A stretch of DNA of 62,965 nucleotides, counting the filler, from Basidiobolus ranarum (Eukaryota): NCBI GenBank assembly GCA_040143965.1. It is 26 parts of 26 records of this genome, joined end to end, with 100 filler letters (N's around TTAATTAATTAA, not from the genome) between each part and the next. Parts side by side here need not be neighbours in the genome. Positions count along the whole stretch, not along the records: positions 7,303 to 9,635 come from JASJQH010003462.1; positions 9,736 to 12,066 come from JASJQH010003463.1; positions 12,167 to 14,496 come from JASJQH010003464.1; positions 14,597 to 16,925 come from JASJQH010003465.1; positions 17,026 to 19,353 come from JASJQH010003466.1; positions 19,454 to 21,780 come from JASJQH010003467.1; positions 21,881 to 24,207 come from JASJQH010003468.1; positions 24,308 to 26,633 come from JASJQH010003469.1; 18 more parts are not named here. One strand, 5' to 3'. The position numbers were made by a program, and so were the translations under genes. The notes beneath the pieces were generated by a model, which saw only the letters and a program-made list of their open reading frames with translations, made no database searches and had not been told where the DNA came from. This document shows, in pieces, positions 8,193-51,940 of the stretch (position 1 is the first letter of the stretch; each line of letters starts with the position of its first letter).

Positions 8193-8692
8193 GTTCAAAG
8201 ACTTACTCTGTATCAAATGTTTAGGATAGCAATAATATACACAGAATTCGATAACCACACAGGATTGTTCGCTTTTTGAGTTGGTCTACTGCTGCTTAGC
8301 CGGTGGAGAGAGGTTCCTTCAATCTGTAAAAACGTTCTGGTCTTCCCCCATTTGAGCACAAGTTAAAAAGGATATGTCAAAGTAGCATCCAGGTCATGAT
8401 TCCAAAGCCAAAGGGGAGAACCTACAGCGTATTAGCCATGACCTTTACACACTGTTGGTTTTTGCACCTGAACAGAAATTAGGTTGGAATTAGCATTTAC
8501 CTTAAAAGGACACAATAGCATACTTTTTTCTTTTGTATGGTCTAGGATTTTGGACTTTTTGAAACATTTCCAGTTCACCATTCTGGCAAGTAGGGCACAG
8601 ACTTGAAGCTTTAAACTTGCCAAGGAGGTATAGCTGGAAGCTTTCTTTGGCTATCATTTTTCTCATTCCAACACCTTTATTGGGTTCATGAG
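8193..8692 (-). pseudogene. Fanzor1 (eukaryotic TnpB) C-terminal relic with intron and conserved 3' non-coding motif
   Basis: HEPNKGVGMRKM..FQLYLLGKFKASSLCPTC (degenerate RuvC-II/Zn), intron 8468-8500, CKNQQC, LWNHDLDA (RuvC-III), GRPERFYR; has frameshifts. Confidence 0.82.
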
Positions 8693-8960
8693 ACTTTGTC
8701 CTATCATCAATAAAGGTCATAAAATACCTTTTTCCACCTAAGGATTTTGTCTGCATTGGGCCACATAGATTTGAGTGTATCAGACCCAATTTTTGATCAA
8801 TTTTGTTCATTCCAGAGCCCACAAATGGCTGTCTGTGTTGCCTATCATATAGGCAACCTTCACATAGCTCCAGATCTTGTGGAATTACAAAATTTAGTCC
8901 CAAAACCAACTTGTTTTTGATTAAATTAGGGTTAGGGGGGATGAAAAGCACCAGATGGTA
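8693..8960 (-). pseudogene. Copia integrase fragment
   Basis: CEGCLY..LIHSNLCGPMQTKSLGGKRYFMTFIDD. Confidence 0.88.
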
Positions 8961-9274
8961 TGAACTCTATTTAGCTTAAATACTAAGCTAAACAAAGTGA
9001 CAATCAAGACATCAATCTTTTAAGATATTTTGACAATACTGGATAATATCCATACTTCACCAGATGATCAATGTAATCAAGTTCAGAGGATGTAAATATA
9101 GTGTTAAGGGGCAAAGGTGGTAAGCAGAAAGGAAGGTACTCAGTACAAACCAGATGGACAATAGGACAAAAGCCTGGAATAATAGGAATCACAAAAGGTG
9201 TATTAGAGGCAAGGTATTGCTTCCAAAGGTCTAGCTGGAAGTCTACCACAACAATTTTAGGCTGTTTTGTTTCT

Positions 9275-9563
9275 GTTGGATAATTAATCTTTATTCAACA
9301 TCATAGTTAACTTTAGTTATGATACATATATCAAAAACAGAAAGCAATGTATCTATAGCCCCTATATTCTAAATAGGAATATCTCTATATCTATATAACA
9401 AGTATATCTTATTACATAAACTCCTGAATATCTCAAACAATTGATTTACTTTTCTACTATATAAGTCACCATATACTCATGAGAATAAACTAACTAAAAC
9501 ACACTATCATAAGTTGCTTCTAACACTCAAAGTCTACCCCCATTATGTCAAGATCCTCCAACA
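9275..9563 (+). repeat. Copia family D LTR followed by PBS TGGTAGCAG; copies at about 15290-15604(-), 26978-27293, 31376-31485 and 48375-48452(-)
   Basis: TGTTGGATAATT...GATCCTCCAACA; a purine tract precedes the copy at 26978. Confidence 0.88.
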
Positions 9564-9735
9564 TGGTAGCAGCAAGTGAATTAGAGTCTTCTTCCCAAAA
9601 GGAGATTACTAATATTCCAACATTCAATGGGGAAGNNNNNNNNNNNNNNNNNNNNNNNNNNNNNNNNNNNNNNNNNNNNTTAATTAATTAANNNNNNNNN
9701 NNNNNNNNNNNNNNNNNNNNNNNNNNNNNNNNNNN

Positions 9736-11070
9736 ATCAAGAATTGAGAATTTGACCTTAAATTATGTATTTGGTAGACTTTAGGATGAAGATTCACACA
9801 AATCAGGATCCAACCAAAAGAATGAAGAAAATGCTTTAATAGGCTATGGGAAACCTTCCTATAACAGTCAAAAGCACTTTAAGAGGAAGAGTAACACATT
9901 CTGTGATTACTGTAAAAGAACTGGCCATTTAAGCAAGGATTGTTTTAAAAGAATTGTAAAAGAAAAACATACTGAATCTGGAAATAAGGTTACAACAGAA
10001 GATCACTTGTTCATATCTGCTCTATCTATGACTACCAACAAGGATTCTCAGATGTGGTATATTGATTCTGGAGCTTCCCATTATTTCACCAATGAAAAAA
10101 ATTGGTTTGTGAAATGTGAAGAAATCCCAATGTGAAAGGTTTCATGGGAGATGACCACACATTGGATGCTATTGGAATGAGATCAATTCAAGTCAATTTA
10201 TCTGGAGCTTCTGAAGAGAAAGTGTATACTTTCAAGGATGTACTACATGTTCCAGCTATTGCCAAGAATTTAATACCTGTATGCAAGGCCACTTCAGAAG
10301 GCCTGAAATTCAATTCTTATAAGTCAGGATGCACCATCACTGATCAAAATGTGAATTATTTAGCTTTGGAAGAAAAGAATCAAAACTTTTACAAACATAC
10401 ATGTAATCAAAGAGATTTATTTGTAAATAAAAGTTGTTCCAATCAAGAAACTATTCAATTATGGCATAAGAGATTTGGTCATATTGGATATGATTGTTTG
10501 AGCAAAATCATCAAAAATTGCCCAATTTGTCAAACTCAAATTATCCCCCCAGCCAAAATGGAAGTTTGTGAGGGTTGCATATATGGAAAACAAGCCAGGC
10601 AAACATTCAAGAGCTCTGGTTTAATCAAATCTGTCAAAAATTTGGATCTAATTCATTCAGATTTGTGTGGACCTATGCAAAATTTATCTCTAGGCAAAAA
10701 TACATATTCAATCACATTTATTGATGATGATACAAGATACACTTGGGTCTACTTTATGGAAAGAAAAGAAGAAGCTCTCTTTATCTTTAGAGACTTTAAA
10801 ACACTTGTGGAGACTGAAACTGGAACTGAAATCAAAAAAATATGTACTGATAATGGTGAAGAATATACGTCAACACTATTTAAGCACATTTGCAAAGTTT
10901 GTGGAATTAAGCCAGAAACTACTGCCCTCTATTCATGTCAACAAAATGGAGTTGCTCAAAAGTTAACAGGACTATAATAGAAATGGCAAGATCTATGATA
11001 ATTGCACAAAATTTATTCAAAACTTTTAGGTGGAATCTGTTGCTATAGCTGTCTATCTGAAGAATAGGAG
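9736..11070 (+). pseudogene. Copia gag zinc knuckle-protease-integrase relic
   Basis: CDYCKRTGHLSKDC, WYIDSGAS, LWHKRFGH, LDLIHSDLCGPM, TDNGEEY, QQNGVA. Confidence 0.93.
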
Positions 11071-11413
11071 GCTGTGTTCAGAACATATGTGGGAGTAAAA
11101 TGAACTATCTTTGGGGCAATTTGGATGAGTTTGAAATTTCCAATATGGAATTGCTAATTCTCACATTATTCACATATATATCATTTATGTTCCAATTTTC
11201 AGCTAAGTGATATTTGGCTAAGTAATGTTAACTAACTTATATGTGATATATGAGATAGTTTGGCATATAAGGATAGAGATAACAAATATGATAAAGACAA
11301 TAAACTTCAACACTTCCACTCAACTAAATATTCATATATCTTAATCCTAACTTAAATCTTAATTCTTCAAACTTAGGCTTGGGTAATGGTTTGGTATAGA
11401 TGTCAGCAATCAT

Positions 11414-12066
11414 TGTTGAAATTAGGTAAATAGCAACTCATTATTTAGCAGTTAGTTTATTCATATTCTGATTATTTAGCACTCAATTCTGTTATTTGAA
11501 AATGTGTGTTTATTGCTCTAATTGATAGAAATATCAATTAGATCACTTTTACTAATTTTCACTATTTTCTCAAAACTTCCCAAATCACCTCAAATTTTCA
11601 CCCATGATTAACAGGCATGTTTGTTCTAATCTAAGCATGTCCAGTAGTCCTATTTCATAGTAAACTATAAATAGCACATATTCAAATCAATAAAATTTAA
11701 GTGTCCAATTCACAAATACAAATCTTGTCCAAAACACTTCCAAATCCCCTAAACACTTTTATCAGGTTATGAGCCCCAAGCTAGCTGTTAAAGGAATGTC
11801 TATCAGTACTATTACCCATGTTTTTGCATCCACAGAGAAGTTTGATGGTGAAGACTTTCACCTTTGGAAGTTCAAGATGCAAATGGTGCTAGAAGACAAG
11901 GACCTTTGTGGATTTGTTACATGAGAAGAAATAGAGCCAAAGGGACCACCAGAAGCTATCCTTGCCATTCACAAGAAGCAGAGGAAAGCACTCTCTACAC
12001 TTTGTCTTCATCTCAGAGATTCTCAATTGAGGCACACACAATCAGCCAGAAACATCCAAAATGCTT
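11414..12066 (+). mobile_element. Copia family B 5' LTR (11414-11764), PBS GGTTATGAGCCC (11765-11776) and gag start
   Basis: TGTTGAAATT...TTTTATCA LTR; EKFDGEDFHLWKFKMQMVLEDKDL. Confidence 0.9.
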
Positions 12067-12166
12067 NNNNNNNNNNNNNNNNNNNNNNNNNNNNNNNNNN
12101 NNNNNNNNNNTTAATTAATTAANNNNNNNNNNNNNNNNNNNNNNNNNNNNNNNNNNNNNNNNNNNN

Positions 12167-13439
12167 TGGAGAGGCTCCAGAATCATTATACCACAACCTA
12201 CAGTCTGGTTTAAAGGTCACTGATAGGGCAGAAATGAATAAAACTTCCTCTTTGGTTGAAACTTGATTTGCTTCTTCTGACTTCTCATTTTTGTTGTAAT
12301 TTCTATATTTGCAATCTTTTAACTGATGTCCTGGTCTATTACAACCACAGCATAAACCTGGTTTCCGTCTTTTGAAACCTTTGTACTTGCCAAAGCTATG
12401 TTTTCCAGCTCCAAAAAGAGCCACTTCCTCAGATTCTTTTTCCATACCCTTACTTCTGAGATGTTGATCCATTCACCTTGCCACCACAAACTCCAAAGAC
12501 AACTTGTCATAACTTTCTTGCAAAGCTGTGACCAGGTTTGAGTACTGTTCTGGTAGACTACTTTGAAGAGTCATAATGACATCTTCTTGATGTAAAGTTG
12601 CACCAATATGTTCCAGTTGTTTTGCCAAAGATCTCACATTTGCAATATGAGTAACCATGCTTTCAGACATTTCCATCTTTATATTGAAGAATTTCTGTCT
12701 GAGAAAGAGTCTATTAGCAAGACTCTTTGCTTCATAACACTCTTCCAATATAGTCCAAGCTTGATGGGAAGTATTTGCATATTGAATATTCACAAGTTGT
12801 GAATCCTTCAAACTTTTACAAATGACATTAACAGCCTTTGTGTCTCTTTTCTTGTAAGCTTCCAATAAAGAAGGGTCAGAAGGTTCCTTTTCATCTCCAG
12901 AGACTGCATCCCAAAGCTCCCTGTCTTCCAGCATGATTTGCATCTGGAACTTCCAGAAATTGTAATTTTCTCCATCAAGCTTTGTAACACTTGAGGTAAT
13001 AAAAGTCATAGTAGTGGTTTCTGTCATGCTGTAAAGGTTAGAACATGGAGCTCATAACCTATTGGGAAAATATGGGTTGTTTGGAGAAACTTTGGAAAAG
13101 AAGAGTTGTGAATAGCTTTGTGAGATAGTTAGTGATTTTCCAGAAATAAAGCATTTATACATTTTGGTGGAAATACAGAAAACTAACACTGGGGTTGTGT
13201 TCAGAACATCTGTGGGAGTAAAATGAGCTATTTTTGGGGCAATTTGGACAAGTTTGAAGTTTCCAATATGGAATTGCTAATTCTCACATTATTCACATAT
13301 ATATATATAATATATGTTCCAATTTTCAGTTAAGTGATATTTGACCAAGTAATGTTAACTAACTTAGGTGTGATATATGAAATAGACAGGTGTATAAAGA
13401 TAGAGATAACAAATATGTTAAAGACAACAAACTTCAACA
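12167..13439 (-). mobile_element. Copia family A: LTR (13060-13439), PBS, gag and protease start
   Basis: KLDGENYNFWKFQMQIMLEDRELW (UBN2-type gag), CCGCNRPGHQLKDC knuckle, WYNDSGAS. Confidence 0.92.
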
Positions 13440-13459
13440 TTGTTACAAACTCTTTGTTA

Positions 13460-14230
13460 TTGGTAAACATTAGTCCACTCATAACACTTACTGTAAAGGA
13501 AGCAGCTATGATTATTGAGGAGTGGAGAGTTCAATTCAATCTTAGCAACCAGGTGTTTATTGGTTTTCTTACACTTTTACCACTGTTGATTGGCAACTGT
13601 TGCTTGCCACAGACCTGGTACAAGTGGAAAACACCAGTCAATTGTATTACTTATAATTCTTCAGTAATTAAACTACCTTCATGTCCAAATGGTTGTTTGG
13701 CATTCACCAGTGATCTGAAAAACCTGAAGTCATGTACTGCTTGCACAGAAATGCCAATCGGTGAATCAGGTAAATATTGTTCATGTTTGGCTTACATATT
13801 GTTGATTCCCCATCTTAAAGTTTTGATGAAATCACCCAAATATAGATCATTGATCCAATACCAAAGTACTCACTGTAAAGCTGATGGTATTACCAATATA
13901 CTGGATGGATATCACTACCAGATTCTGAAGAGTCAAGGTTTCTTTAAGAACATGTATGATCATGCATTTGAATTGGCTTTGGATGGTTTCTTGCTAAACA
14001 AATATATCATTGGAAAGGCTTGCTGGCCAATAATTTTAATCAACTTAAATTGTCCTCCTTGTGATTGTATAAGAGTCATAATATTTTGATACTATCCATT
14101 ATATCTGGACCTAAATCACCAGTGCTTATAGATTGATTCTTAGAGCCTTTGAATGTGGAATTTGAATGGTTATATAATGAGGTTCAGATAGGTAAATATT
14201 TTATTAAAGCTAATATCATTGTATGTATTG
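13460..14230 (+). pseudogene. CMC/EnSpm transposase (Transposase_21/tnp2-like) relic
   Basis: CPNGCLAF..CTAC..AYILLIPHLK..ILDGYHY..LALDGF..CWPIILINLNCPP. Confidence 0.85.
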
Positions 14231-14596
14231 TCCTAACAACAATAAAATCAATTTGATCCAGATTGGATCCACCCTCCAACATAGCAAAACCTTCAGAGAA
14301 CCATCACAATATTGGTGGCTTGCATTCTGCCAAGGATTTTGATGGTGTGATGGTGGTTTCTTGATGGTATTTTGAAGGTATTCATACATGTTAAAATATT
14401 GATCTTCAAACTTGGCATGTGTTATTCAATATCTGGCAATTGTTGCAAAAATCTAATTTTTGAATGGCAATTTACTGGGTTTACAGCTGTAGGAATNNNN
14501 NNNNNNNNNNNNNNNNNNNNNNNNNNNNNNNNNNNNNNNNTTAATTAATTAANNNNNNNNNNNNNNNNNNNNNNNNNNNNNNNNNNNNNNNNNNNN

Positions 14597-15290
14597 CTTA
14601 TATGGCCTGATGTAGATACTATAGTCAGCATCACGCTTTTGGAGTTTGAGTGTGTCCAAAAAAGTATCTATCTTGCTATTCCAAGCTCTTGGAGATTGTT
14701 TTAAGCCATAGAGTGTTTTCCATAGTCTGCAAACTTTTTTAGGGTTTACTGGGTCCACAAATTGATCTGGCTGGTCCATATAGATCTCCTTCACAAGCTC
14801 ACCATTCAAAAAGCAGCTTTAACATCCATTTGATGTATAATAAACTGATATTTAGCTGAAATTGCTGAAATCAGTCTAATTGAATTAAACTTTGCTACAG
14901 GAGCAAAAGTTTCTGTATAATCTATTCCTGGTGTTTGGCAATAGCTTTTGGCTACTAGTCTAGCCTTGTACCTTTCTATATTGCTATCAGAGTTGTATTT
15001 AACTTCAAGAACCCATTGGCTGCAAGTGATTTTCTATCATCAGGTAAAATGGTTGAAATCCAAGTTTGATTATCTCTCAAGGTGTGGTCCTCATCAGCCA
15101 TTGCAGATCTCCAAGATTTTTTGTGAGGGCCATTCAGTGCCTCTTTTACCACCTGGGGTTCATGTATTTGTGCTGTGCAGGCATAGGTCCAATTTGGGGA
15201 CTCATTGATATAGTAATCAGGGCTATTTCTGATCTGATTTGATCTCTTGGTTTGGCATAAAGGTACTACAACTTCTGGCATTCTATTTAT
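14597..15290 (-). pseudogene. Copia RT relic
   Basis: GELVKEIYMDQP..LWKTLYGLKQSPRAWN; YKARLVAK. Confidence 0.92.
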
Positions 15291-15604
15291 TGGAGGATCT
15301 TGGCATAATGTGGGTAGACTTTGAGTATTAGAAGCAACTTATGATAGTGTATTTTAGCTACTTTATTCTTAAGAGTATATGGTGACTTATATAGTAGAAA
15401 AGTAAATCAATTGTTTGAGATATTCAGGAGTTTGTGTAATAAGATATAATAGATAAGTGGGGGTAATAAGACATACTTGTTATATAGATATAGAGATATT
15501 TCTATATGGAATATAGGGGCTATAGATATGTTGCTTTCTGCTTCTGATATATGTATCATAACTAAAGTTAACTATGATGTTGAATAAAGATTAATTATCC
15601 AACA

Positions 15605-16925
15605 CCTTCACTTAATTCTTATTCAGCATTGTGTTTATATTGACTGATGCCAATTCCTGCTCTTAACTTCTCAAAGCTTGAAGTTTTCAGTGGTTTTGTT
15701 AGTATATCTGCAAGCATGTTTTCAGTGTTACCATAAATGAAGTTCACTTCTTGGTCTTGAAGTTTCTCTCATATAATATGATGTCTTATGTCAATATAAT
15801 TCATCCTTGAGTGATGCTCCGGATTTTTGGTGATCTGAATACCACTAATATTATCTTGATATGTTGGGGTAGGATTTACTTGATCATATCCTAGTTGCTT
15901 GAGAAGACTCCTTGGCCATATAGCTTCTTGACCAGCAACAGAGCTGCCATATATTCTGCTTCTGTAGTTGATAATGCAACAGTTTGTTGTTTCTTGCTAA
16001 TCTAGTCTATTGGCCCACCTGCTAGCCTAAATTCATATCCAGTTCTGGATTTACAGTCTTCTGTATTGTAAGCCCAGTCTGCATCAGCATATCCTTCCAG
16101 AAAAAGTTACATGTTGTACTGCTTACTAAATTGAATTCCATGATGTATTGTTCCTTTCAGATAGTGTATTATCTGTTTCTCAGCTATCCAATGTTCAATT
16201 GCAGGATTCTCCATATATTTGCTTACTATACTTACTGCTGTAGCAATATCAGGCCTAGTACCAGTTGTTGCATATATGAGACTTCCAACTGCACTATGTT
16301 AAGAAATATGTTTCATGATTTAAATATCTTCAGAGGTCTTTGGTTCCATATTGTCAGAGAGTTTCAGCATACCTGGTGGATTTGAAGCTGTTTTACATTC
16401 CAACATATTGAATCTGTTTAAAACATCTCTAATATATTTTTCTTGTATAATACAGAGTGTTCCAATAGTGGAATTTTGATATATCTGCATTCCAAGACAA
16501 AATGCTAAGGATCCAAGATCTTGCATTTCAAACTCAGTGGATAGCCAGGTCTTAGATTGTTTCATCAGCTTTGAGCAATTACTAATTGTTATGATATCAT
16601 CAACATAGAGAGCAATTATCACTTAGGTGGCTCTGATAGTTTTGAAGTATTTGCAGTGATCAGCTTTGCTATGATGGAAAAGATGTTTCATGAATATCTG
16701 ATTGATTTTGGTATTCCGTGGCCAAGGAGCCTGTTTTGGACCATATAGACTTCTCTGTAGTTTGGATACTTGATGTTCTTTTCCTTTTGTAATATATCCC
16801 TCTGGTTGATCCAAGTATATATCTTCATCAATTTCTCCATTAAGAAATGCTGTCTTGACATCCATTTGTTCAATCAGCATTCCTTGGTGGGTAGCAATGG
16901 CTAGGATTACTCTGATTGAGGTAAA
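15605..16925 (-). pseudogene. Copia family D RT-RNaseH relic ending at PPT/3' LTR
   Basis: QMDVKTAFLNG, SLYGPKQAP, ALYVDDI, YADADWA. Confidence 0.92.
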
Positions 16926-17100
16926 NNNNNNNNNNNNNNNNNNNNNNNNNNNNNNNNNNNNNNNNNNNNTTAATTAATTAANNNNNNNNNNNNNNNNNNN
17001 NNNNNNNNNNNNNNNNNNNNNNNNNAATAAGGTAAATTTTCACTCAGAATTAAATCCTATTTAAAGGAAGGATGTGAATTATAACTGACTTAAGAATAAA

Positions 17101-18102
17101 ATGACCAAAACACATAGTGTCACGTTCGAAGATGTCCAAAGAGCTTCCGAAAGAATTGCACCCTTAATTCACAAAACTCCAGTGATGACATGTAGTACTC
17201 TGGATGGTTTCTCACAAACTGAAGCTAGTCCCGATATACGCCTTTTTTTTAAGTGCGAAATGTTTCAGAAAACTGGTGCTTTCAAATTTCGTGGGGCAAG
17301 TAATGCCGTTTTACAATTATCGGATGAGATGGTCAAGAATGGTGTAGTCACTCATAGTTCTGGAAATCATGCTCAAGCCCTAGCTTTGGCTGCTAAGAGC
17401 CGAAATATACCTGCTTATATCGTGATGCCAAGCACTTGTCCACAAGTGAAAAAGGATGCGGTAAAGGGATACGGTGCTATCATCACTGAATGTGAGCCCA
17501 ACCAACAATCTCGTGAGCTTGCCGCACAGTCCATCATTGACAAACTTGGTGCTACTTTAGTCCATCCTTACAACCATCCTCATATAATTGCCGGACAAGG
17601 CACTTGTATGCTTGAGTTTTATCAACAAGCGGAGGAAATGAACGTTACTTTAGATGCGCTAGTGTTGCCAATTGGTGGAGGAGGATTCATATCTGGATGT
17701 TCTATTGCTGCTAAAGCACTCAACCCTAATGTGCGAATTTTTGGTGCTGAACCAGCTAATGCTAAAGATGCTTATCTTTCATTTGAATCTAAGGAGCTGA
17801 TTCCCAATGCAAAGCCACCAACTTCTATCGCAGAAGGGCTTTTAGCCAATCTTGGACCTTATGCTTTCCCCGTAGTGATAGATCATCTTGAGAAGGTATT
17901 CATCGTTACTGAAGAGCAAATATCTGATGCCATGAAGATGGTGTGGGAAAGAATGAAACTTATCATTGAAGGCTCTGCTGCAGTGGCAGTAGCAGTAGTC
18001 CTCTACAATGAGGAATTCCGTAAGCTTCAAGGAATTCGAAATATTGGTATTGTATTAGAAGGCGGAAATGCTGATCTATCGAGCCTCCCTTGGCTCAAGT
18101 AG
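17101..18102 (+). CDS. PLP-dependent serine racemase / threo-hydroxyaspartate ammonia-lyase (Thr dehydratase family), intronless
   Basis: KCEMFQKTGAFKFRGA (PLP lysine), HSSGNHAQA, PIGGGG, IAGQGT; intact 333 aa. Confidence 0.93.
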   Translation: MTKTHSVTFEDVQRASERIAPLIHKTPVMTCSTLDGFSQTEASPDIRLFFKCEMFQKTGAFKFRGASNAVLQLSDEMVKNGVVTHSSGNHAQALALAAKSRNIPAYIVMPSTCPQVKKDAVKGYGAIITECEPNQQSRELAAQSIIDKLGATLVHPYNHPHIIAGQGTCMLEFYQQAEEMNVTLDALVLPIGGGGFISGCSIAAKALNPNVRIFGAEPANAKDAYLSFESKELIPNAKPPTSIAEGLLANLGPYAFPVVIDHLEKVFIVTEEQISDAMKMVWERMKLIIEGSAAVAVAVVLYNEEFRKLQGIRNIGIVLEGGNADLSSLPWLK

Positions 18103-18400
18103 ACATTATTCTCGAAGATATTGAATTTTGGGATATAAACTCATCAAAACAATGATATTCATTCCTTATCTTAATCCCTTGTACTTTATATCTTTTGATA
18201 AACGTACATACCTTCCATTAATAAAAGGAATTTGTATACAAAACCCAGTAAGATAGGAGTGTGGGTGTTTTCATTTTAATGGTGCTAACAGTGTCTCTTA
18301 TCAATTAGTATTTGTAAATTGGTTATAACTGCCATACAAAACCTCAGCTCAACAGATATATAGCTGCTATTAGTATGCTTCATCTATTTACTAAGATTGA

Positions 18401-20650: not shown

Positions 20651-20656
20651 GGATAG

Positions 20657-21880: not shown

Positions 21881-22487
21881 TCAACAGTCAATGGAGAAAA
21901 GTTTGTCAAGTACCTCCAGGAGAGAGCCAAAGCCACGCTGGTCCTGAAAAAGTATTATTCAAACGAAGATGTCCCTGCTGCAGAAAACCGAAAAAGTAAT
22001 TTGCTGCCGTTCCGAAAAATGAAATGCTGTGATAATAATCGGCAACTGGACTGTCGGAAATGTGAAGTTTCATGAGCCCATTAGAGGCATTAGAATGAGA
22101 AGAATGCTAGCAAAAGAAGGCTTCCAGGTATACCTCCTTAATGAGTTCAAAACTTCTAGTCTGTGTCCTGTCTGTGGAAACGGCAAGCTTGAAATATTCA
22201 AAGAAGTACAGAACCTGAGACCTTTTAAAAGAGAAAAGAATCCCACTGTAACATGCCATAGCCTGTTAAGGTAAAAGCTTGTATATGCAAGACAAAAAAA
22301 ACGAAGCTGATTGTTTTCAATTTAGGTGCAAAAACCAGAGCGATTTTGCAGACTGAAGGCAGCTCCATCCACAAGTTCTAAAAGAAAGGGGGTCTCATTA
22401 GCTAATAGTACTCGACCCACTAAAAAACCAACCCATCCTTTGTAGTTACCGCTACACTAATCCAAGATACAGTGCAAGTCTTTGAAC
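21881..22487 (+). pseudogene. Fanzor1 C-terminal relic (internal deletions) with intron 22271-22325 and conserved 3' motif
   Basis: FVKYLQERA..LPFRKMK / IIIGNW..KFHEPIRGIRMRRMLAKEGFQVYLLNEFKTSSLCPVC..CHSLLR|CKNQ; RuvC-III missing in this copy. Confidence 0.85.
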
Positions 22488-23034
22488 AAATGAGCTTCGT
22501 CTACAAAAAAAATTACACTGCCTATTTTTTTTACATTCACTCGTCTCAAAGTTTTTTTGCAATCGTCCCATATATTTTATGAAGCGTCTAATTTTTTTTA
22601 AATTGTCTCATTTTAGGCTAAAACACTGTTATAGATAAACAACCTTAAATATTATGAATATCTAAATCCTAAATGTTGGGACTCTGATAAACTTTAATAA
22701 ATATTGACTTTCCAATAACTTAAGTATTCTAACTGGTTAATATAGAAACTGAATTTATGGATACACCAAATGTGGGGTTTTAGAATATTCTTACTAGTTT
22801 AAACGTAAATTTCATTTTTATGGAAAAAATAAACACTAACATAAGCCCAAGTAATAACAATTCACTTCCATCTGACCAATAGAAATGCTAGAAAGTAGTA
22901 GATTGGTTTATAAACAAACAAAACAATCTCCCTCCCCACTTTTTCCACCAAGAGAAGGTATATTTATATTTCTCGAGTGTCATAGAATAGTCTAGCCTCT
23001 GGAACAATAATACTTGTTTTAAACTTCACGAAGG

Positions 23035-39375: not shown

Positions 39376-39780
39376 ATCTATTAACTTCATCATTTTCCTC
39401 CATCTTGAAGCAGTTGGAGGAACGATTTCCACTAGACTCCTAATGAACATCATTTCTACCTTACCTGCTCCCCCCCATTCACTTCATATAAATATATTAT
39501 GTAGCCCTGGCCTTGGTCATCACTCTTAAATACATACTGTTAATCAATTTTATTTTTATCTCCGCTTTTTTCAATGGTTTTAGAAGTCATCTCTGATCAA
39601 CATCGTACATTAGTATGCTCTCTATAAATAAGGTCACTTGACTGCAAGTCGATCCCTTGTCGCTAATAGAGTACATTAGTTGAGCAATTCTGAAAGCACC
39701 GGTTGTTAATGATTAAACAGTTGTTTATTTTTTTGTGACTGAACCCAAGATAATTCGATCAGACACGTGATTAAGGTATT

Positions 39781-41283: not shown

Positions 41284-42340
41284 GGTTACGGAAGAGTTTT
41301 GGATTAAAAAAAGTTTCGACGAGAAAGTTTCGGGAAGAGAAAAAAATAATTTTAAGAGGTTAGGGAAGATTAAAATATAAACATGTTAGTTTGTGATATA
41401 GTTTTTATTTAAAAGATTAGAGTCGGAGAGACGTTAGTTTGGAAATTATTTTAAAATCTAAAAACAAATTCGAGAGACGTTAGTTTGGAAAGATTAATTC
41501 CAGAAGACAAGAGATTGGGTTTGGAAAAATAAATTTTAAAAAAAGTTTTCGGAGGACAAAAGATAACTTTTAAAGGTTGGTTAGAGATGATAAAGTTTAG
41601 AAGGAACAAATTATAAACCAAAAAGTTTATTAGAAGAAGATAATAGGGTAGACGGGAAGATTAGTTATAGATGAGAGGGGTTCGAGAAGAGAGAAGTTTG
41701 GTTAGAAATAATTTGGGAAAGTTTGGAACCAAGATCCAGGTTAGGTTTGGAATCAAGTTTTAAATAAGATCTAACATCAAGTTTGGAAAAAAATATTTAA
41801 AAAAGTTTCGAGAAGACAAAAGTTTAATTAGCGAAAAGATTTGGTGTACAAAAGTTTAGAGTTGGATCAAGTTGGGGTTGAGACGAGAAAGTTTCCAGAA
41901 GAGAAAAGTTTGGTAAAAAAAAATAAATTCGGAAAGATTTAAAAAGGTTTCGAATCAAGATCCAAGTTAGGGTTGGAATTAAGTTTTAAATAAGATCCAA
42001 CATCAAGCTCGAATTAAAGTTTGTTGCGAAAAAATATTTAAAAAGGTTTCGAGAAGACAAAAGTTTAATTAGCGAGAAGGTTTGTGTTAAGGGTTTGGAA
42101 TTAGATCAAGTTAAGGTTAAGACGAAAAAGTTTCGAGAAGAGAAAAGTTTGGTTTAGAAAAAAATAATTTCGTAAGATATTTAAAAAGGTTTCGAGAAGA
42201 GAAAAGTTTGGTTTAGAAAGAAATAATTTCGTAAGATATTTAAAAAGGTTTCGAGAAGAGAAAAGTTTAATTTAAATTAATTTTGGATGTCGGAAAAGTT
42301 TAAAGTTGGGGTTAAGACGAGAAAGTTTCGAGAAGATATG
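41284..42340. repeat. AT-rich degenerate tandem array (about 235-bp and 60-bp units), virus-like repeat family
   Basis: 60-bp unit TTTCGAGAAGAGAAAAGTTTGGTTTAGAAA.. at 42131 and 42191; about 235-bp duplication 41715/41950. Confidence 0.88.
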
Positions 42341-42403
42341 GGTTAGGGTTTAAGGTTTAGGGTTTAGGGTTTAGGGTTTAGGGTTTAGGGTTTAGGGTTT
42401 AGG
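42340..42403 (+). repeat. Interstitial telomere-type tract (TTTAGGG)6 plus variant units
   Basis: Six perfect TTTAGGG at 42356-42397, flanked by TTAGGG, TTTAAGG and TTTAGG. Confidence 0.95.
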
Positions 42404-42566
42404 TAAGGCAAATAATAAAGGTTCACCTGTTTGCAGAAGAACGGTTTACATTTTTTTTTAAATTGGAAAAATGCGGTGTTGCGATATTTTTTGTTTTATC
42501 GTTTGAAAGTTTTACAGGTTAAAAGTAACACAGGATAGTTAATGTTGTAATTAAGTATACGGTAAA

Positions 42567-43469
42567 ATGTTGGACTACTTTTTTGCCGGAAACGTGGAAA
42601 TTGATCGGGGAAAAACCGGGACCGTAATATATTATCTTTCTATTTTTCTATATATGGATCTGGACATCGTGACATTTTTTAGCGATCTTGAAGATGATAT
42701 AAAAAAACAGTGTAGGGCTATGGTAAAAAAAATAAGAAAAGCAAAAAAAGAATTGTTGCTCAAGTATAATATGTCAGAATTGCAAAATAATAATCAAGTA
42801 TGTACTGCTATTATAAAATCGGGACAAAAAAAGGGTATGAAGTGTTCACGTATACCTAAGAGTGGTAACCAGTGTTGTGGTTATCACAGACTTAAGATGG
42901 TTGATTTTATTCCAAAACTAATAAAGGTTGATAACACAAAAAAAGAATATGATGCAAGTAATAAACAGCGGGAGGATGATGTAAATAATAAGGGGCATGA
43001 TGGTGTAAATATTTCAGATATGTATATAAATAGTCAAGAGTCGTCAGGCCAATCATCTTCTTATAAGGATTGTGATAGTATAAATAACAGGGTGTCACCA
43101 GTGCAAACAACTACGGATGACCAGCCAACTACGAGTAGCCAACAATTGCAGGAACAAAATATAAGTGGGGGGAGTTATCTTGGGCAGACTATAAATAACC
43201 AATTATCATCTGAATCAAATACGCCGGAATGTTTGAGATTATTGGAGGGTGTAGGCAATGAGAGTTTGCCATCATATTCAGAGGTTCAAAGGTTAAGGTG
43301 TGAGATTACGACAGAGGGGGATGGGTCGTTAGTTCATTTGCAGAATGCATCAGTGGAGATAGGGGCAATGATATCACAGGAGGGGGGTATAATACCGTCG
43401 ATAAAGAATGTAATAATACCGTATGCCTGGGGAGCTGCATGGAATGTTGTAAAAAGGGGTTTAAGTTAG
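42567..43469 (+). CDS. Intronless virus-like protein with a C3H zinc-finger motif (likely start at 42654)
   Basis: CTAIIKSGQKKGMKC..CCGYH resembles the Cx-IIKSG-RKG-C..C..H finger (DUF5763-like) common in large DNA viruses; intact 300-aa ORF. Confidence 0.65.
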   Translation: MLDYFFAGNVEIDRGKTGTVIYYLSIFLYMDLDIVTFFSDLEDDIKKQCRAMVKKIRKAKKELLLKYNMSELQNNNQVCTAIIKSGQKKGMKCSRIPKSGNQCCGYHRLKMVDFIPKLIKVDNTKKEYDASNKQREDDVNNKGHDGVNISDMYINSQESSGQSSSYKDCDSINNRVSPVQTTTDDQPTTSSQQLQEQNISGGSYLGQTINNQLSSESNTPECLRLLEGVGNESLPSYSEVQRLRCEITTEGDGSLVHLQNASVEIGAMISQEGGIIPSIKNVIIPYAWGAAWNVVKRGLS

Positions 43470-43707
43470 GTGGGTTAAGGGCAGAATAGATTATGAGTCA
43501 GGAAGGCCCTTAGCTGTTAATTTTGGTAGGGTTTAGAATAGTTTGGGGGGGAGATTTTTGTTGGAAGAAGTATTTTTTTGTCGACTAGGGTTTAGGTCGA
43601 GATGATANNNNNNNNNNNNNNNNNNNNNNNNNNNNNNNNNNNNNNNNNNNNTTAATTAATTAANNNNNNNNNNNNNNNNNNNNNNNNNNNNNNNNNNNNN
43701 NNNNNNN

Positions 43708-45060
<1,353 letters not shown>

Positions 45061-45492
45061 GGTGACAAACTACGGAGACTACAAACAAGTTCAAGGTCGA
45101 GCACGCGTATGCATAATTAGTACCATCCTGTTGAAATTTATTAAAGAGCATGGGTTCGACCCTTGATAGTTTACCTTTTTTTTAAAAATCAAAATTATTT
45201 GCCTGATATCATCGGTAATAAAATAATAGGCTAATATCAAAATCAAAGACGCATATACCTTCATAAGTATATTAAACAATCAGTTAGTAAATTTCACAAA
45301 TTCATACGAATTATCTTGGCAACTTCATTTCGTATATATTCAATTAAAATTTATCATCAATTTATTTAATTCTCACTTTTTTTGCAAAATTTGGTCCAAC
45401 TGTTTTGTAAAAATTGACCCTTAATCTGTCGTGAAATATACCTGTCTCTTTGTGGTATCTCTTCTTTAAACGACACTTAACCTTTGTTCATT

Positions 45493-46030
45493 ATGGCTTC
45501 TAATGAAAATGAAGATGCTGCCAATAGCTCATCCCAACCTTTGTACGTATATAGTTTACGCCTCGATTTTATCATATATATATGTTTAATTCCTAATTTT
45601 ATTCTATATTCACAGAGATCCTATCAAACCAGAGGCTACTCATAGGAAAAAAGAACGCTCTACAACAAGTCAAAGAAAAAGGTACTTTACATGATACAAA
45701 ACTTACCCCAGATTACTTTTGCTAACTAGGAGAAACTATAATTAAACCACTTTCTTTAGATCTCGCTCCCCTTCGGTTTCACGTTCCAGATCTAGATCCC
45801 GTTCACCTCCTCGTCGTCGTAGACGATCCCCCTCTACATCTGATTCTAGTTCTGATTCTGAAAGTAGATCACGTTCTCCCCGACATAGAAGACGTTCGAC
45901 TTCCTCACGTTCTAGATCACGTACCCCTCCTCGCCGCAGCAGAAGACGTTCCCGCTCACGTTCAAAAACCAGGTAACTTTGGACTTTAGATTTTCGATTT
46001 CATCCATCCATCCTTTTTTGGTCAGTCGAC
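45493..46030 (+). CDS. Multi-exon RS-rich protein, N-terminal part, divergent from CEF1
   Basis: ATG at 45493, GT-AG introns, exon encoding SRSRSRSPPRRRRRS..SRSRTPPRRSRRRSRSRS. Confidence 0.72.
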
Positions 46031-46130
46031 NNNNNNNNNNNNNNNNNNNNNNNNNNNNNNNNNNNNNNNNNNNNTTAATTAATTAANNNNNNNNNNNNNN
46101 NNNNNNNNNNNNNNNNNNNNNNNNNNNNNN

Positions 46131-46971
46131 AAAGCTTAATTTCACCATGGAACTAGGTATGCAAGTTGGAAGAGTGCTAAATTTAGAAGTTTATCCAACA
46201 CCTGGCACCTCTCAACAAGCCAAAACACCAGCAAATAAAACCCACAGCTCTCCAACCTCAACTGGTACTTTTCAGAGTGTTGAAATTAGCCCCAAAGGTA
46301 AAGGCAAGCAAAAAGCTACACTAACACAACAAAGCCCCATCAGTAGTGTCACATTACAAGGCCATACAAAAATAGTCAAAGTGCTTGAGGAGTATTTTCA
46401 AAAGTATGAAGGGAAAAATGCAGTGCAAGTATGCAGAAGGTGGCTTCAGAAGAAGAACATTCATTTTGACATTCAGTCTGGTGTTAACCCAGCAGATATC
46501 TGGGAAGAACTTAATACAGAGTGTCACAATATTGCAGGGTATCCGCCAGATAGCTGGAAGAATGTTGAATCAGCAACATCAATATAACGGCGGGCTTTGA
46601 TGGAGATATTGATACAAACTTGCGTTAGGTATGAGCTAAACCTTGGGTGTGAAAAACTCTATAAAAATATTCAGGAGAATATATCAAAGAGACTAGGGAT
46701 TTCAGAGGTGACAAATTAGCATTCAAGTGGTAATTGTGTAAAATTTGAGTTACATTTTTTGCACATGTGTTGATCCATAGTTCTCTGAGATTTTAGCCAA
46801 TCATGTGCAACTATTTTGCAAGATCTTGAAATATCACTCCTGAAACTGAAGAAATTGATTAAAATCAAATCTAACTTGACAATTTTATGATGGTAAGTAA
46901 GCAGTCAATCCCAAATGGATTAAAATTGTGATGGTTTTCCTACAATAGCAATCCTCAAATTTCTGTTAGGG
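46131..46971 (+). mobile_element. EnSpm-like accessory ORF 3' part and element terminus ...TTTCTGTTAGGG
   Basis: Homologous to 19454-19640 and 36436-36640; terminus is the reverse complement of 28644-28890. Confidence 0.65.
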
Positions 46972-48929
46972 ATAAGTACTGCCTAATCCACTGACTATGT
47001 ATCCAACTACCATGGTTCCTGTGAGTCATTGTTCTTTTGATACCAATATCTGTTTGTTACATTATTATTGTAAAAGGTGGAAACATTGAATCTGTCCTGA
47101 TTTACTAAGTCTTGTAAGGTGAGCCCTGGTATATAACCTAGATGATATGGCAAGAATAGCATTCTCTGATAACTTTGAAAGTTCCCATTCAACAAGGCTC
47201 AAGCATTTACTTGATGATATTTCCTACAGTATTAAGATTCATACATCAAATAGCTCAGAGCTTATAAATATGTTGAGATGTGTTACATTTTTGAGGTACT
47301 GGCCTCTACTCTAACTTTCACTTCATTCCATTTTGAGTAACATTCTCTTTCACTATAGGTTGGCTGAGATCATCCTTCAAAAGCTGAGTAAGTTTTAATG
47401 GCAATGTGTTTCTTGGGATATTGTGGTGATATCCACAAACTAAACATAGAGATGACTTCTGAGTAATACTATCAACTCAGTGCAATAGGCAAACTAGTCT
47501 TGATTAATTTATTGGTCCACTTGTATATAGGTCCATTCACAAATGAAACAAAACGCAAGTGGAGACATCAGATTTTGCTTCATCCTGAAATGCCACTAGA
47601 ACTCAGCAAAAGGTAGGATGAAACCTGATTTCCAACTATGACATATTGATTTCATACTCACAAAATCATTGCAATAAACAATTGTTGATCTATTGTAAGA
47701 TGCTCTTGATAGTACCCAAGAAATATCTTGGCTTTTGTTCACTATATTCTGGCCAGATTTATTTCCCTTGCTATATTGCTTTGGTAGCTTGAAAAGAATC
47801 TGCCACTTACTTGGTATACTCCAGCGGAGGTTTTTTTCCCTGAGTGGAAGAAATCCTAACATAATGTGCCTGTTAAGATTTGCTAATAATAGCAGCTTAT
47901 GTAATTGTTAGTACACAATATTCAGTATTATCAAGGAATTCATACTATCAGTACATCAGTAGCATTCTCAAATCAAACCTATCAATATCAACAATTCTCT
48001 GCTATGCAAGTATTAATTATTATTAGTCAAGAGCTATAGGAGGTTTTGATAGTTGGTATAATTGATTACATAATGAGTCTTATGTACATATTCAATTGGA
48101 AATGACTTGATCATATAGACTGTGCTACTCTAACATGTGTCAGCTGATTTCTGTACTGTCCCAGGATGGCTTAGCTAAGGCCTGTGCCATCCTATTACAA
48201 TGTAGCTAAATGCTGATATAGTAGTTATATTGGTATGATAAAAGTGTTTTGGACAAGATTGGAATTTATGATTTAGACACTTGAGTGTTGTTTAATTGAA
48301 TAGGTCCTATTTACATTTACTATGAAATAGAACTATAGGATGTGCTTAGATTGTAACAAACATGTCTATAAAGTGTTGGAGGATCTTGACATAATGGGGT
48401 AGACTTTGAGTATTAGATTCAACTTATGATAGTGTGTTTTAGTTAGTTTATTNNNNNNNNNNNNNNNNNNNNNNNNNNNNNNNNNNNNNNNNNNNNTTAA
48501 TTAATTAANNNNNNNNNNNNNNNNNNNNNNNNNNNNNNNNNNNNNNNNNNNNACTCACGCCAACCCATTCCACCTATCAAAATACAAAACTAAACTCCAT
48601 GATCTTACCATCATGAGCCCAGTCAGAGTTCAACATGAATGCTGATATCAAATCATCAAATATTTAGTCTAACATCAAACTTGGTAATAGCTGTAAGTCT
48701 AAGATTGTATTGCTAAAGAGGATCAGCTGGAGCCAGAGCTTCCCACCACGCACCGTGCACTTACTATTCAACAACATTCCAATACTACCTACTCAGCTAT
48801 ATTGTGAAAAATTCAATATGAATCAGCCATTTGAGATAGGATCCAAGTTTGAATCAATTGGGAAAATGCTTGAAAATGTCAAAATCCCATCATATTTTAC
48901 CAGGACCCCCATCAATTTCCACTTACCTA

Positions 48930-50234
48930 GGCATTCATTCAAATGAAAAGACTGGAAGTATTGAATTTGTATATGATCCTGTGGGATCGTGAAAAGATTT
49001 CTGCCTGATATGTATTGGCAACATTGGGAGTTGTTTGTGGATATTGTGAATATATTCTTATGGCATTTGCCCACAATGGCAGATCTCAGGCAGATACAGC
49101 AACTGTGCAAAGACTTTGTAATTGGATATGAAAAACCTTATTAAGGTTTAAATAAGATAGGCTGAATCTATGCCAGTATTCTATACATTCCCTGCTGCAT
49201 CTTTAACAATGCTCAGAGATTATAGGCCCTTACTACATATTCTGGGAGTTCCCAATGGAGCACACCGGCAGTGAAATGATGCTCTGTGTGAAATTGTCAG
49301 TATCACCACATGCTAATCTGATTAATAATGCAACAGCAAAATTTCTGATGGATGTAATGCAATGGGTTGAGGAGACTGCAGAGTATATTAACCTTCCAAC
49401 AAACAGGCTCTTTTCAATGTGCTCATGGGTTTGCACATTGTTTGATCACAATAACAGCAACAAAGTCCAAACAATGGACACAGAGTAAGTACCTCTATAA
49501 TTTGGACTAACTTTGTTTGTTCAATAATCTGATGGTATTTCTAGAAAAGCTGCAAGACAGACTTCTTGGTGAGATAGATGGAGATACACAGTTTTATTGT
49601 TTTAGCCGTGGGGTAATCTATTCAATCCATGACACATCTACTTGTGGCACAACAATTATTGACTGCAAGTTGAGGATATATTGGCTGAATTCTTTACGGA
49701 AATTTCCCAAAATTCAACAACTTGGTTGCATTGTAAATGGTAATAAGAGTCAGCTATTTGCCAAATGTCAGTGCTATTCAAAATTTCAGATGTTAAGCAA
49801 TTTTTCCACGATTAGTTTGCAGGTAAAGCATATTGATGTTGTGAGGTTATGTTGGAGCAGTCAGTATGTGAATACGTAGAGACTAAACATAATATGATTC
49901 TTGTATTTTTTGATTCTTAATATGGCTTGAATACAAAGCCAAAGATATATAAATAAAGGCACACATAATTATTTGAATTCCTACAGCAGTAAACCCAGTA
50001 ATTTGCCATTTGAAAATTATATTTGCAAACATTGAGGGAAATTTATAATGAATATATGATGATCAATATTTTAACATGTATGAATACCATCAGAATACCT
50101 TCAAGAAACCACCATCACATCAACAAAATGCCTGGCAGAATGCAAGCCACCAATATTGTGATGGTACTCTGATGATTTTGCAACTTGTAAGGGTGGATCC
50201 AATGCATATCAAATCAATTCTATTTTTGTTAGGG
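48930..50234 (+). mobile_element. CMC/EnSpm transposase C-terminal relic and terminus
   Basis: Collinear with 5005-6314. Confidence 0.75.
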
Positions 50235-50487
50235 GACAGTGGACCCAGAGCTCACTGGCTCCTTTACTTTTCTCTTAGATTTACTAACTTAGCATGAGAT
50301 GCTCCATTTTGTGACATCCTCTATATTGTCCTCTCTAATATTTTTGCTTGAATGTTTGTTAGTGTAGCTGAAGAATTCTTTGCATATTAAATCCAGGTGA
50401 TTTTGAGCAACATTCCACACAGTTTAAAAAATGTTATATCACTCATCATCAGAGCAAGTGATGGCAGCTGTGACATTCAGAGTCTCT

Positions 50488-50863
50488 GTTAAAGTTTATT
50501 GTCTTCATCAAATTTGTTATCTCTATCTTTATCCATATAACTTTTTTATATATCACAAATGAGCTGGCTAAGACTACTTAGTCTAATATCACTTCACTGC
50601 AAATCAGAAAATATTTTATATATATATGTGAATAATGTGGGGATTAGCAATTCCATATTGGATATGTCAAACTTGTCCAAATTGCCCCAAAGATAGCACT
50701 TTTTACTCCTACAGATTTTCTGAACACAATCCCAATGTTAGTTATCTTTATTTGCACCAAAATGTATAAATGCTTCATTTCTGGGCAATAAATAATCATC
50801 TCACAAAGCTATTCACAAGTCCACTTTTCAAACATTCCTCCAAACAGGCAATATTTCCCCAAT
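50488..50863 (+). repeat. Copia family A solo LTR
   Basis: Matches 20657-21034. Confidence 0.8.
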
Positions 50864-50973
50864 AGTCTTTTGANNNNNNNNNNNNNNNNNNNNNNNNNNN
50901 NNNNNNNNNNNNNNNNNTTAATTAATTAANNNNNNNNNNNNNNNNNNNNNNNNNNNNNNNNNNNNNNNNNNNN

Positions 50974-51940
50974 CTTTGATTGCTAGTGTATCGGTATGTC
51001 CTTTTCTTTTCTACAGTACTTTCTTCGTGCATGCAGTAGAGCATGTCGCGTCGACCAGGATCGATCAACACACACTTGCGACACCAGCCAAGAGTTCTTC
51101 TTTTCCAACTTATCAACATACTGAAATTCTTCGACTTCTTTTTCTTTTCTACTAGCACCACTACTACTACCTTTCTTCGTATCATAGTTTTGCTTCAACA
51201 CAGACACACCAACACCATCAGTAAGCAACATGCCCCTAAACTTCATTGCATTCCTTCCACCTTGTGGCTTCATTGCTTTTGTTGTGGCATCAATGACAGC
51301 TCCCCATGTTACTTCTTTGTCCAAATGGCTGATAGCAGGGTTCTTCAAAATCTGCGTGTTTAAAATAAGCGTGTCAATTGTCATATAGGATGGTATGAAT
51401 GTTCTCCTCAACGGTAATAAGATAGGAATTCTTTTGGTAGATTATCAATTTTTCCAGACGAAATAGTCGTTTTGATTTTACTGCATTGCTCGACGATAGA
51501 TTTTACTGCAGCCAACACTTCTTCCCCCGAGTTACCCTTCTTCTTCATTTCATCTTTTGCTATCTTTATTCGTTCATTCTTCTTTAAGAGTATGTTTAAG
51601 AACATACGTAGCTTGTTTCTGAATTGTAAGGAGATGCCATTCAAATACGCTGTGTTTATTTTCGTTACTTCATACGAGGCTATTTGATGTGCATACTTTA
51701 AGTTAATTGGCTCATATAAACTATGTTGAAAGTATAAGTCTCGATGGTTGTTGATAAGCTCTCGGTAGGTTCTTGACTTTGACGATGCTGTTTGTTTATT
51801 TGGTTTGTAATTCTGGAGAAGCGACAAGAAGACTTCTCTGTAAAAATCAACGTTGGAAAATTTTTCCAGGGCAAAGGCAGGGTCATTTTCCAATTCTTGA
51901 ATAAAAATGTACTTCAAAAAGGTGAACGTATAGTGCCTTT
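50974..51940 (-). pseudogene. Fanzor1 N-terminal-to-RuvC-I relic (frameshifts and internal deletion), truncated by contig edge
   Basis: FLKYIFIQELE..FYREVFLSL..YEVTKINTAYLN..PLRRTFIPSYMTIDT..FRGMLLTDGVGVSVLKQ..CVLIDPGRRDMLYCMHE..YRYTSNQ (IDPG is RuvC-I). Confidence 0.85.

Follow-up and report, generated by a model that had tools for sequence, protein, structure and literature searches.

Remnants of Rhizopus-type Fanzor1 genes on three contigs of a Basidiobolus ranarum assembly

Fanzor1 is a single-protein RuvC DNA endonuclease of eukaryotes that descends from bacterial TnpB. It is guided by an omega RNA, whose template is the 3′ end of the Fanzor gene together with the transposon end. Later surveys catalogued thousands of Fanzors. 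Here we describe three Fanzor1 loci in a 62,965-base stretch of DNA from the fungus Basidiobolus ranarum (assembly GCA_040143965.1), referred to below as the window. With a probability of roughly 0.9, we consider them to be dead remnants of Fanzor1 genes of a Rhizopus-type subfamily, no copy being able to make an active nuclease. Fanzor1 was defined by Bao and Jurka in 2013 (PMC3627910). That paper counts four families in Rhizopus oryzae (ROr), ten in Mucor and three in Phycomyces, describes the Mucorales elements (Rhizopus, Phycomyces, Mucor) as carrying MuDR-like terminal inverted repeats (TIRs) and no transposase, and gives 33 bp for the TIRs of SpuFz1; Basidiobolus is absent from its Table 1. 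Passages of PMC11423790 describe how Fanzor1 with its omega RNA cleaves double-stranded DNA beside a short transposon-associated motif (TAM) through a RuvC catalytic triad, as in SpuFz1, GtFz1 and PpFz1. The TAM is given there as 5′-CATA-3′ for GtFz1 and 5′-TTAA-3′ for SpuFz1, and a later passage gives TTAA as that of GtFz1. PpFz1 (PDB 9cf0-9cf3; Xu et al. 2024) is reported in the same source to have a 5′-ATN TAM and a 75-nt omega RNA, and to be unusual in bearing, within RuvC, a ~100-residue FRI insertion to which cyclophilin binds.

The window holds contigs that we number by their order along it, and the three loci lie on contig 4 (7303-9635), contig 10 (21881-24207) and contig 22 (50974-53293). 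Translated pieces of the loci were compared by phmmer with all chains of the Protein Data Bank (PDB). As shown in Table 1, PpFz1 of Parasitella parasitica (9cf0) was the best PDB match for every sizeable piece, and SpuFz1 (8gkh) came second, with E values of 1.2e-6, 8.8e-5 and 0.061. These matches to two characterised proteins extend across REC/WED, RuvC and TNB and bear out the Fanzor assignment made in the initial annotation; judged by sequence matches to solved Fanzor1 structures, the question of the fold is already answered. Among 449 candidates, a word-indexed search with a 152-residue piece picked out 39 proteins at E≤1e-3, which are 44-71% identical to it. Mucorales are the source of all 37 that carry a name (Rhizopus delemar, R. 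arrhizus, R. microsporus, Gilbertella, Helicostylum and Cokeromyces), the other two being unnamed, and PF26935 is a precomputed annotation on 37 of the 39. When the 39 proteins were run against the window by tblastn, only contigs 4, 10 and 22 of the 26 contigs were matched (E≤1e-3).

A passage of PMC11423790 gives the catalytic triad of SpuFz1 as D383, E541 and D606. We mapped these residues by HMMER alignments with a chain offset of 394. The RuvC-I Asp of CVLIDPG in contig 22 (codon 51060-51062) aligns to D383, a position outside the stretches kept in contigs 10 and 4, and the RuvC-II Glu of LLNEFKTSS in contig 10 (codon 22143-22145) aligns to E541. In contig 4, LWNHD aligns to WNRD of the R. 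arrhizus protein P0003, whose Asp aligns to SpuFz1 D606. This RuvC-III Asp (codon 8393-8395, in WNHD) survives only in contig 4, the most decayed copy, and there in a shifted frame. The zinc ribbon of TNB is represented by CPVC in contig 10, where the second half is truncated, and by CPTC and CKNQQC in contig 4. The proposed order of D, E, zinc ribbon and D is supported, with D606 reached only by way of P0003.

Several results weigh against this identification. In Pfam, eight of nine relic pieces had no relevant family, and the sole relevant match, PF07282 (Cas12f1-like TNB) in a contig-10 piece, had an E value of 3.1e-4 and 21.3 bits, less than the 26.3-bit cut-off. The profile comparison proposed in the initial annotation thus returned, with Pfam, one TNB match below the cut-off and otherwise nothing relevant. 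Pfam assigned no family to the full-length relatives P0003, P0012 and P0436 either. The 22-residue RuvC-III piece matched no Fanzor in the PDB, its only match being a salicylate hydroxylase at E 0.49, and the RuvC-III assignment is for that reason indirect, through the alignment to P0003.

All three copies proved to be damaged, as had been noted at the outset, by frameshifts, by deletions of 45-57 residues or by stops. The contig-22 relic reaches RuvC-I and runs off the contig end (50974) 30 residues past it. The true N-terminus that had been read there is absent: the ~39 residues with which relatives begin were sought upstream of 51938, and nothing above noise was found. Its deletion corresponds to P0003 residues 95-151, or to PpFz1 chain positions ~708-774, the PpFz1 alignments jumping from 707 to 775; by tblastn, a gap of ~57-58 residues was seen against all six references inspected. 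The contig-10 copy contains an intron at the same position as in contig 4 and in L001, a near-complete relative of 4815 nt and the single locus returned when metagenome contigs were scanned with P0012. The deletion in contig 10 has removed the RuvC-III Asp along with the second zinc-ribbon Cys, and the P0003 alignment shows a gap of 26-30 residues. The spliced frame of contig 10 ends at a stop at 22354-22356. In contig 4 the RuvC-II Glu has become Lys (codon 8616-8618), ~11 nt have been lost before the intron, of which a 33-nt remnant is left at 8468-8500, and there are several in-frame stops and frameshifts. Straight translations of all three loci are full of stops, and the motifs of one locus fall in different reading frames, so the damage is real.

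Table 1. Positions of Fanzor1 relics and associated features in the window, with the basis of each assignment
Feature	Position	Strand	Basis or remark
Contig-22 relic, Fanzor1 ~residue 40 to 418 (P0012 numbering), REC/WED through RuvC-I	50974..51938	-	phmmer, tblastn
Contig-22 piece	51411-51938	-	PpFz1 E 1.1e-31
Contig-22 piece	50986-51441	-	PpFz1 E 3e-24; SpuFz1 E 1.2e-6
Contig-22 piece	50975-51194	-	PpFz1 E 2.7e-7
Deletion joint and frameshift, contig 22	51417..51420	-	~57 conserved residues gone, no DNA in place
Second frameshift, contig 22, just upstream of RuvC-I	51097..51104	-	frame -2 and -3 high-scoring segment pairs overlap
PLRRTFIPSYMTID	51373-51414	-	motif search
TDGVGVS	51202-51222	-	motif search
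CVLIDPGRRD	51045-51074	-	motif search
Contig-10 relic, P0003 residue 335 to stop codon, starts at contig end	21881..22445	+	phmmer, tblastn
Contig-10 piece	21881-22072	+	PpFz1 E 9.5e-4
Contig-10 piece	22023-22271	+	PpFz1 E 2e-22; SpuFz1 E 8.8e-5
PFRKMK	22007-22024	+	motif search
Frameshift and small deletion, contig 10	22023-22057	+	tblastn
VYLLNEFKTSSLCPVC	22128-22175	+	motif search
CPVC zinc-ribbon half, contig 10	22164-22175	+	
55-nt GT..AG intron, contig 10	22271..22325	+	splits Arg codon ahead of CKNQ
Deletion joint, contig 10	22333..22338	+	frameshift; ~45 residues gone between CKNQ and PERF
Conserved 42-nt tail after stop codon, ends in GTCTTTGAAC	22446..22487	+	36/42 nt as in L001
Right TIR, contig 10, homologous to L001 TIRs	22497..22643	+	local alignment
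Contig-4 relic, Fanzor1 3′ part, P0003 ~420 to 3′ tail	8193..8707	-	tblastn, sequence
RPERF	8329-8343	-	motif search
LWNHDLDA	8384-8407	-	motif search; RuvC-III
CKNQQC	8449-8466	-	motif search
Copia-type integrase fragment, CxxC...HSNLCGP...FIDD	8708..8966	-	open reading frame 8502..8966; weak PF13976, E 0.12

The initial annotation also took the family to be reconstructable from the three relics. They do cover part of the protein, but not the whole of it, and at least two diverged lineages are represented among them, contig 4 and contig 10 being only 72% identical at the DNA level. Even with all three combined, P0003 residues 95-151, 301-334 and 397-407 have no counterpart, nor do the first ~39 residues present in P0012 and L001. 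The relics are thus insufficient for rebuilding a nuclease.

The window is composed of 26 separate contigs, with pieces falling from 2335 to 2317 nt in length. The spacers have the form N44-TTAATTAATTAA-N44 (for example 50874-50973), and fifty 44-N runs are paired around the 12-mer TTAATTAATTAA every ~2.43 kb. It follows that the three Fanzor loci are unlinked, that the span 8193-51940 under which they had been listed has no physical meaning, and that any feature crossing a spacer is artificial. Positions 21881 and 50974 are contig ends and not gene ends, so that two of the three loci stop at contig ends. All eight motifs of at least five residues that we searched for were found at the places and on the strands first reported, and GNW and HEP were seen in the open reading frame (ORF) 22023..22274, where they were read from the ORF and not searched as patterns.

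On contig 4, the N-terminal part of a copia integrase is fused in frame and head-to-tail to the Fanzor relic (...FIDD/...HEP; joint at 8700-8712, minus strand). No long terminal repeat (LTR) or TIR was found at this joint, and comparison by eye with L001 and with a copia copy on contig 5 showed only a few bases of possible microhomology. The joint is a product of illegitimate recombination rather than an insertion boundary. Because the microhomology comprises so few bases, a k-mer chimera looks unlikely, on this by-eye basis. The 3′ end of a sugar-transporter gene (7304-7585; PF00083, E 8.6e-23) lies ~600 nt beyond the contig-4 relic.

Contig 10 and P0003 have ~40 residues from SVN..YYxNE to LLPFRKMK, against ~137 in PpFz1, where the count starts at SVNMEKF, and the window family is therefore an ordinary Fanzor1 without the FRI insertion. 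L001 provides the element anatomy of the subfamily. Its protein, encoded by exons 2569-4038 and 4089-4358, is 99.6-100% identical to R. arrhizus P0003. An upstream ATG at 2220 would give ~690 residues, and a T-run near 2425 shifts the frame, which explains the downstream start of the Rhizopus gene models. Two inverted repeats of ~143 nt (1713-1855 and 4446-4590), ~88-89% complementary, enclose the gene, and no transposase lies between them. The L001 gene is thus the passenger of a non-autonomous TIR DNA transposon. Elements of the ROr-4 MuDR type are recognised by long TIRs like those of confirmed MuDR elements together with 9-bp target-site duplications; at the TIR ends of L001 the flanking 9 bp differ, and no target-site duplication was seen by eye. 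In the window, the right TIR is retained in contig 10, which aligned to L001 with a score of 109 against a shuffle maximum of 54 and is the only one of the 26 contigs with a TIR score >45. Contigs 4 and 22 have no TIR: the comparison of contig 4 with L001 scored 29, less than its shuffle maximum of 42, and a TIR search of contig 22 found none. The L001 element is located in a nest of transposable elements (TEs). A tyrosine-recombinase-like ORF (weak PF00589, E 6.4e-4) lies upstream of it in L001 1-1729, and ORFs on the opposite strand at 1318-1729 resemble reverse-transcriptase remnants, by eye only.

Downstream of the stop codon, similarity ends at the same nucleotide in three copies (22487 in contig 10, 8193 in contig 4 and 4403 in L001). 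The tail before this point is identical to L001 at 36 of 42 nt in contig 10 and at 20 of 22 nt in contig 4, while most coding stretches are 72-78% identical and the contig-4 exon 83%. From its sequence, the conserved 42-nt tail makes a plausible candidate for the 3′ portion of an omega RNA scaffold, and the ancestors of the relics were presumably omega RNA-guided double-stranded DNA nucleases. The segment between tail and right TIR differs in both sequence and length, being 42 nt in L001 (4404-4445) and ~9-11 nt in contig 10 (22488-22496); it could be a variable, guide-like segment or just a spacer. Positions 8193 and 22487 were considered as the right end of the transposon and ruled out, as homology between contig 10 and L001 resumes beyond them in the TIR.

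Several findings weigh against the guide RNA reading. The end of the tail is not the end of the transposon, which complicates that reading. The folds of four window copies were no better than shuffles (z 0.21, 0.58, 1.37 and 2.60), nor were three folds of L001 (z 0.90, -0.42 and 1.32), and none of the six consensus pairs in a three-sequence consensus showed a compensatory change. An Rfam scan of the window returned nothing at the tail. As for the subfamily, L001 is itself frameshifted near its 5′ end, and a fully intact member of the subfamily was not seen here. The sole Rfam match in the window was a tRNA gene on contig 15 (36050-36122, plus strand; RF00005, 50.4 bits).

The observed/expected (o/e) ratio of CpG is 0.81 in the Fanzor stretch of contig 22, 0.47 in contig 10 and 0.22 in contig 4. 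It is 0.02-0.14 in twelve retroelement contigs, which show a TpG/CpA excess of 1.16-1.47, and 0.6-0.9 in gene-bearing contigs. For the LTR retroelement contigs 1-3, 5-7, 9, 12, 16, 20, 25 and 26 (for example 1-7202 and 9736-16925), ranges of 0.02-0.09 and 1.29-1.43 were noted. CpG is wholly absent from the 933 nt (8703-9635) of the copia piece beside the contig-4 relic. This erosion of CpG in repeats resembles a methylation-linked process, or one like repeat-induced point mutation, aimed at repeats. The initial annotation was right that the relics on contigs 22 and 10 keep CpG that the retroelements have lost. That these copies are younger does not follow, because the CpG-rich copies also carry large deletions; it fits as well that the relics met less of the CpG-eroding process that acts on high-copy repeats. 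Compared with L001, contig 22 has a proportion of synonymous differences (pS) of 0.72-0.81, at which synonymous sites are saturated, and a proportion of nonsynonymous differences (pN) of 0.16-0.21; contig 10 has a dN/dS of ~0.2. Contig 4 is far from saturation over 64 codons (pS 0.32, dS ~0.42), and the relic there is 82-83% identical to L001 in nucleotides. Since divergence is concentrated at synonymous sites, most of it arose under selection, and the lineages were functional genes through the greater part of their past.

With a 176-residue piece, an exhaustive HMMER search gave 168 representatives at E≤1e-3, and names were checked for the 20 top ones. The closest of these 20 is from R. microsporus (71%). 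The only Basidiobolus sequences among them are two B. ranarum fragments, P0293 (66 aa) and P0283 (110 aa), and the other named ones are from Mucorales. P0293 is 92-94% identical to contig 22, and P0283 is 63% identical to contig 22 and 87% to R. arrhizus P0003; the next-nearest longer representatives are 38-45% identical. A 28-row tree, with distant subfamilies of Mucorales at the root, makes contig 22 the sister of the R. microsporus group (SH-like approximate likelihood-ratio test, SH-aLRT, 96), inside a Rhizopus clade (97), and places P0283 within the R. arrhizus/delemar group (98); a 32-row tree built earlier is in agreement. In a C-terminal tree, in which one outgroup row stands on the wrong side, contig 4 lies inside the R. 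arrhizus/delemar group (100), and contig 10 has no resolved position within the Rhizopus clade. All trees come from 'quick' searches, and the window rows fill less than half of the columns. An approximately unbiased (AU) test rejected a grouping of the 18 ingroup rows (16 Mucorales, 2 unnamed) to the exclusion of both Basidiobolus rows (delta lnL 82.9, p 8.5e-5), the group having been chosen after the tree was seen. The nesting in Rhizopus clades suggests, as its simplest explanation, either horizontal transposon transfer, of two lineages, or contamination. We regard it as an even bet that Rhizopus-type Fanzor1 transposons moved horizontally from Mucorales into Basidiobolus at least twice, spread a little (the second copy being 92-94% identical), and then decayed, partly through CpG erosion. 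Of the lineages present, at least two in number, contig 22 represents one like R. microsporus and contig 4 one like R. arrhizus/delemar.

The transfer reading presupposes that the contigs belong to Basidiobolus. On contig 19, a fragment of CDC5/Cef1 is 94% identical to two proteins of Basidiobolus meristosporus, followed by matches at 77% and by Mucorales at 69-71%, and the host appears to be a Basidiobolus; the B. ranarum fragments at 92-94% and 63% identity to contig 22 speak for this as well. We infer that contigs 4, 10 and 22 come from the same organism as contig 19, and this step weighs against the reading. A Rhizopus-like contaminant from the Mucorales, or a mixed sample, would account for relics that nest inside Rhizopus clades, for contigs that are all short (about 2.3 kb) and for a Basidiobolus assignment that hangs on one marker gene on another contig; it might also account for an enzyme dependent on pyridoxal phosphate (PLP) on contig 8 that has no close Basidiobolus relative (best 58%), so that the contig set may be heterogeneous. 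We nevertheless consider it unlikely. The relics are only 44-71% identical to any sequenced Mucorales protein, though many Rhizopus genomes were among those searched. Pieces of contigs 7, 12, 13 and 20 match the CpG-free copia fragment of contig 4 at 85-99% identity, and contig 22 has a repeat in common with contigs 2, 11, 12 and 15, so that both relic contigs share repeats with the CpG-eroded retroelement contigs that account for much of the window. The TE-rich, Rhizopus-type L001 is not depleted in CpG (o/e 0.76). Exact look-up of three ORFs flanking the relics on contigs 4 and 10 found no match in the protein collection, and a look-up of the copia integrase, meant to tie the repeats to a taxon, was uninformative.

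That the similarity to Rhizopus stems from vertical inheritance of a Fanzor1 family that is old, evolves slowly and was common to early fungi seems slightly less probable still. Table 1 of PMC3627910 shows Fanzor1 to be widespread in early-diverging fungi, and Mucorales carry paralogous subfamilies at 38-45% identity, so hidden paralogy can mimic nesting; the quick trees with their sparsely filled window rows leave room for this as well. Set against it are the AU test, the placement of contig 22 with R. microsporus and of P0283 and contig 4 within R. arrhizus/delemar, and the low synonymous divergence of contig 4 from L001. Moreover, the relics share 61-71% protein identity with Rhizopus, and CDC5 of this genome, a conserved splicing factor, is 69% identical to that of Rhizopus stolonifer. 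As for the state of the genes, it is very improbable that they are intact and that the breaks are introns or sequencing errors. One real intron is present, and the frameshift of L001, in a homopolymer run, is possibly an error. But the break in contig 22 drops ~57 conserved residues without intervening DNA, contig 10 has no DNA to hold its missing ~45 residues, RuvC-III included, and contig 4 combines stops, the 11-nt loss, the 33-nt intron remnant and the Glu-to-Lys change.

Two other contigs carry genes of note. Contig 8 has an intact PLP-dependent Ser/Thr dehydratase/racemase-like gene (17101-18099, plus strand), whose best public relative is 58% identical. As a means of taxonomic placement it was uninformative, its identity being 52-58% whether compared with chytrids, Mucorales or planctomycete bacteria, and the 120 best matches included no Basidiobolus orthologue. 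Contig 24 has a compact Rpb1-like RNA polymerase ORF (56980-58128, minus strand), with Pfam Rpb1 domains 2-5 in 383 aa and NADFDGDE present. This contig is AT-rich (31% GC) and not depleted in CpG, and the ~140-nt tandem repeats beside the ORF are common to contigs 14 and 18; the element could be plasmid-like, organellar or virus-derived.

A full-text literature search, which did not cover supplementary catalogues, found no paper naming Fanzor together with Basidiobolus. Fanzor1 itself is a described and structurally solved family of which Mucorales-type members are already known. Bacterial TnpB (IS200/IS605, for example ISDra2) is the ancestral RuvC and zinc-ribbon nuclease, with a guide from the transposon right end. 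This ancestry explains the weak PF07282 match in contig 10. The relics differ from TnpB in their intron, their long N-terminal REC/WED region and their setting in a TIR transposon, and they gave no direct significant match to it. SpuFz1 of Spizellomyces punctatus belongs to the same fold family as the relics and is far more distant from them, as its E values show. Their best solved relative, PpFz1, has the same order of REC/WED, RuvC-I/II/III and TNB zinc ribbon and has in common with them the motifs PLRRTFIP, TDGVGVS, DPGRRD, LLPFRKMK, GNWS, EF(K/R)TSS.CP.C, CKN..C, WNRD and RP..F. In contrast to the window copies and to Rhizopus P0003 it has FRI, and the window copies are pseudogenes. Closest of all to the relics are the Fanzor1 genes of Rhizopus (P0001-P0004 and others, L001), at 61-71% identity in protein and 72-83% in DNA. 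Their intron lies at the same position, their genes too are followed by the 42-nt 3′ tail, and their right TIR is homologous to that of contig 10; they differ in having a Mucorales host instead of an apparent Basidiobolus one, whereas the relics are truncated and decayed. The common intron, tail and TIR define the anatomy of a Rhizopus-type subfamily of Fanzor elements. No new programmable enzyme is to be had from the relics, and for that purpose an intact relative of the Rhizopus type would serve better than a relic that had been rebuilt. Their main residual interest is evolutionary, in a possible transfer across phyla: if the contigs truly belong to Basidiobolus, they provide a case in which the passage of a transposon from one fungal phylum to another can be tested, and if that transfer took place, a transposon with an RNA-guided nuclease has travelled across phyla among fungi.

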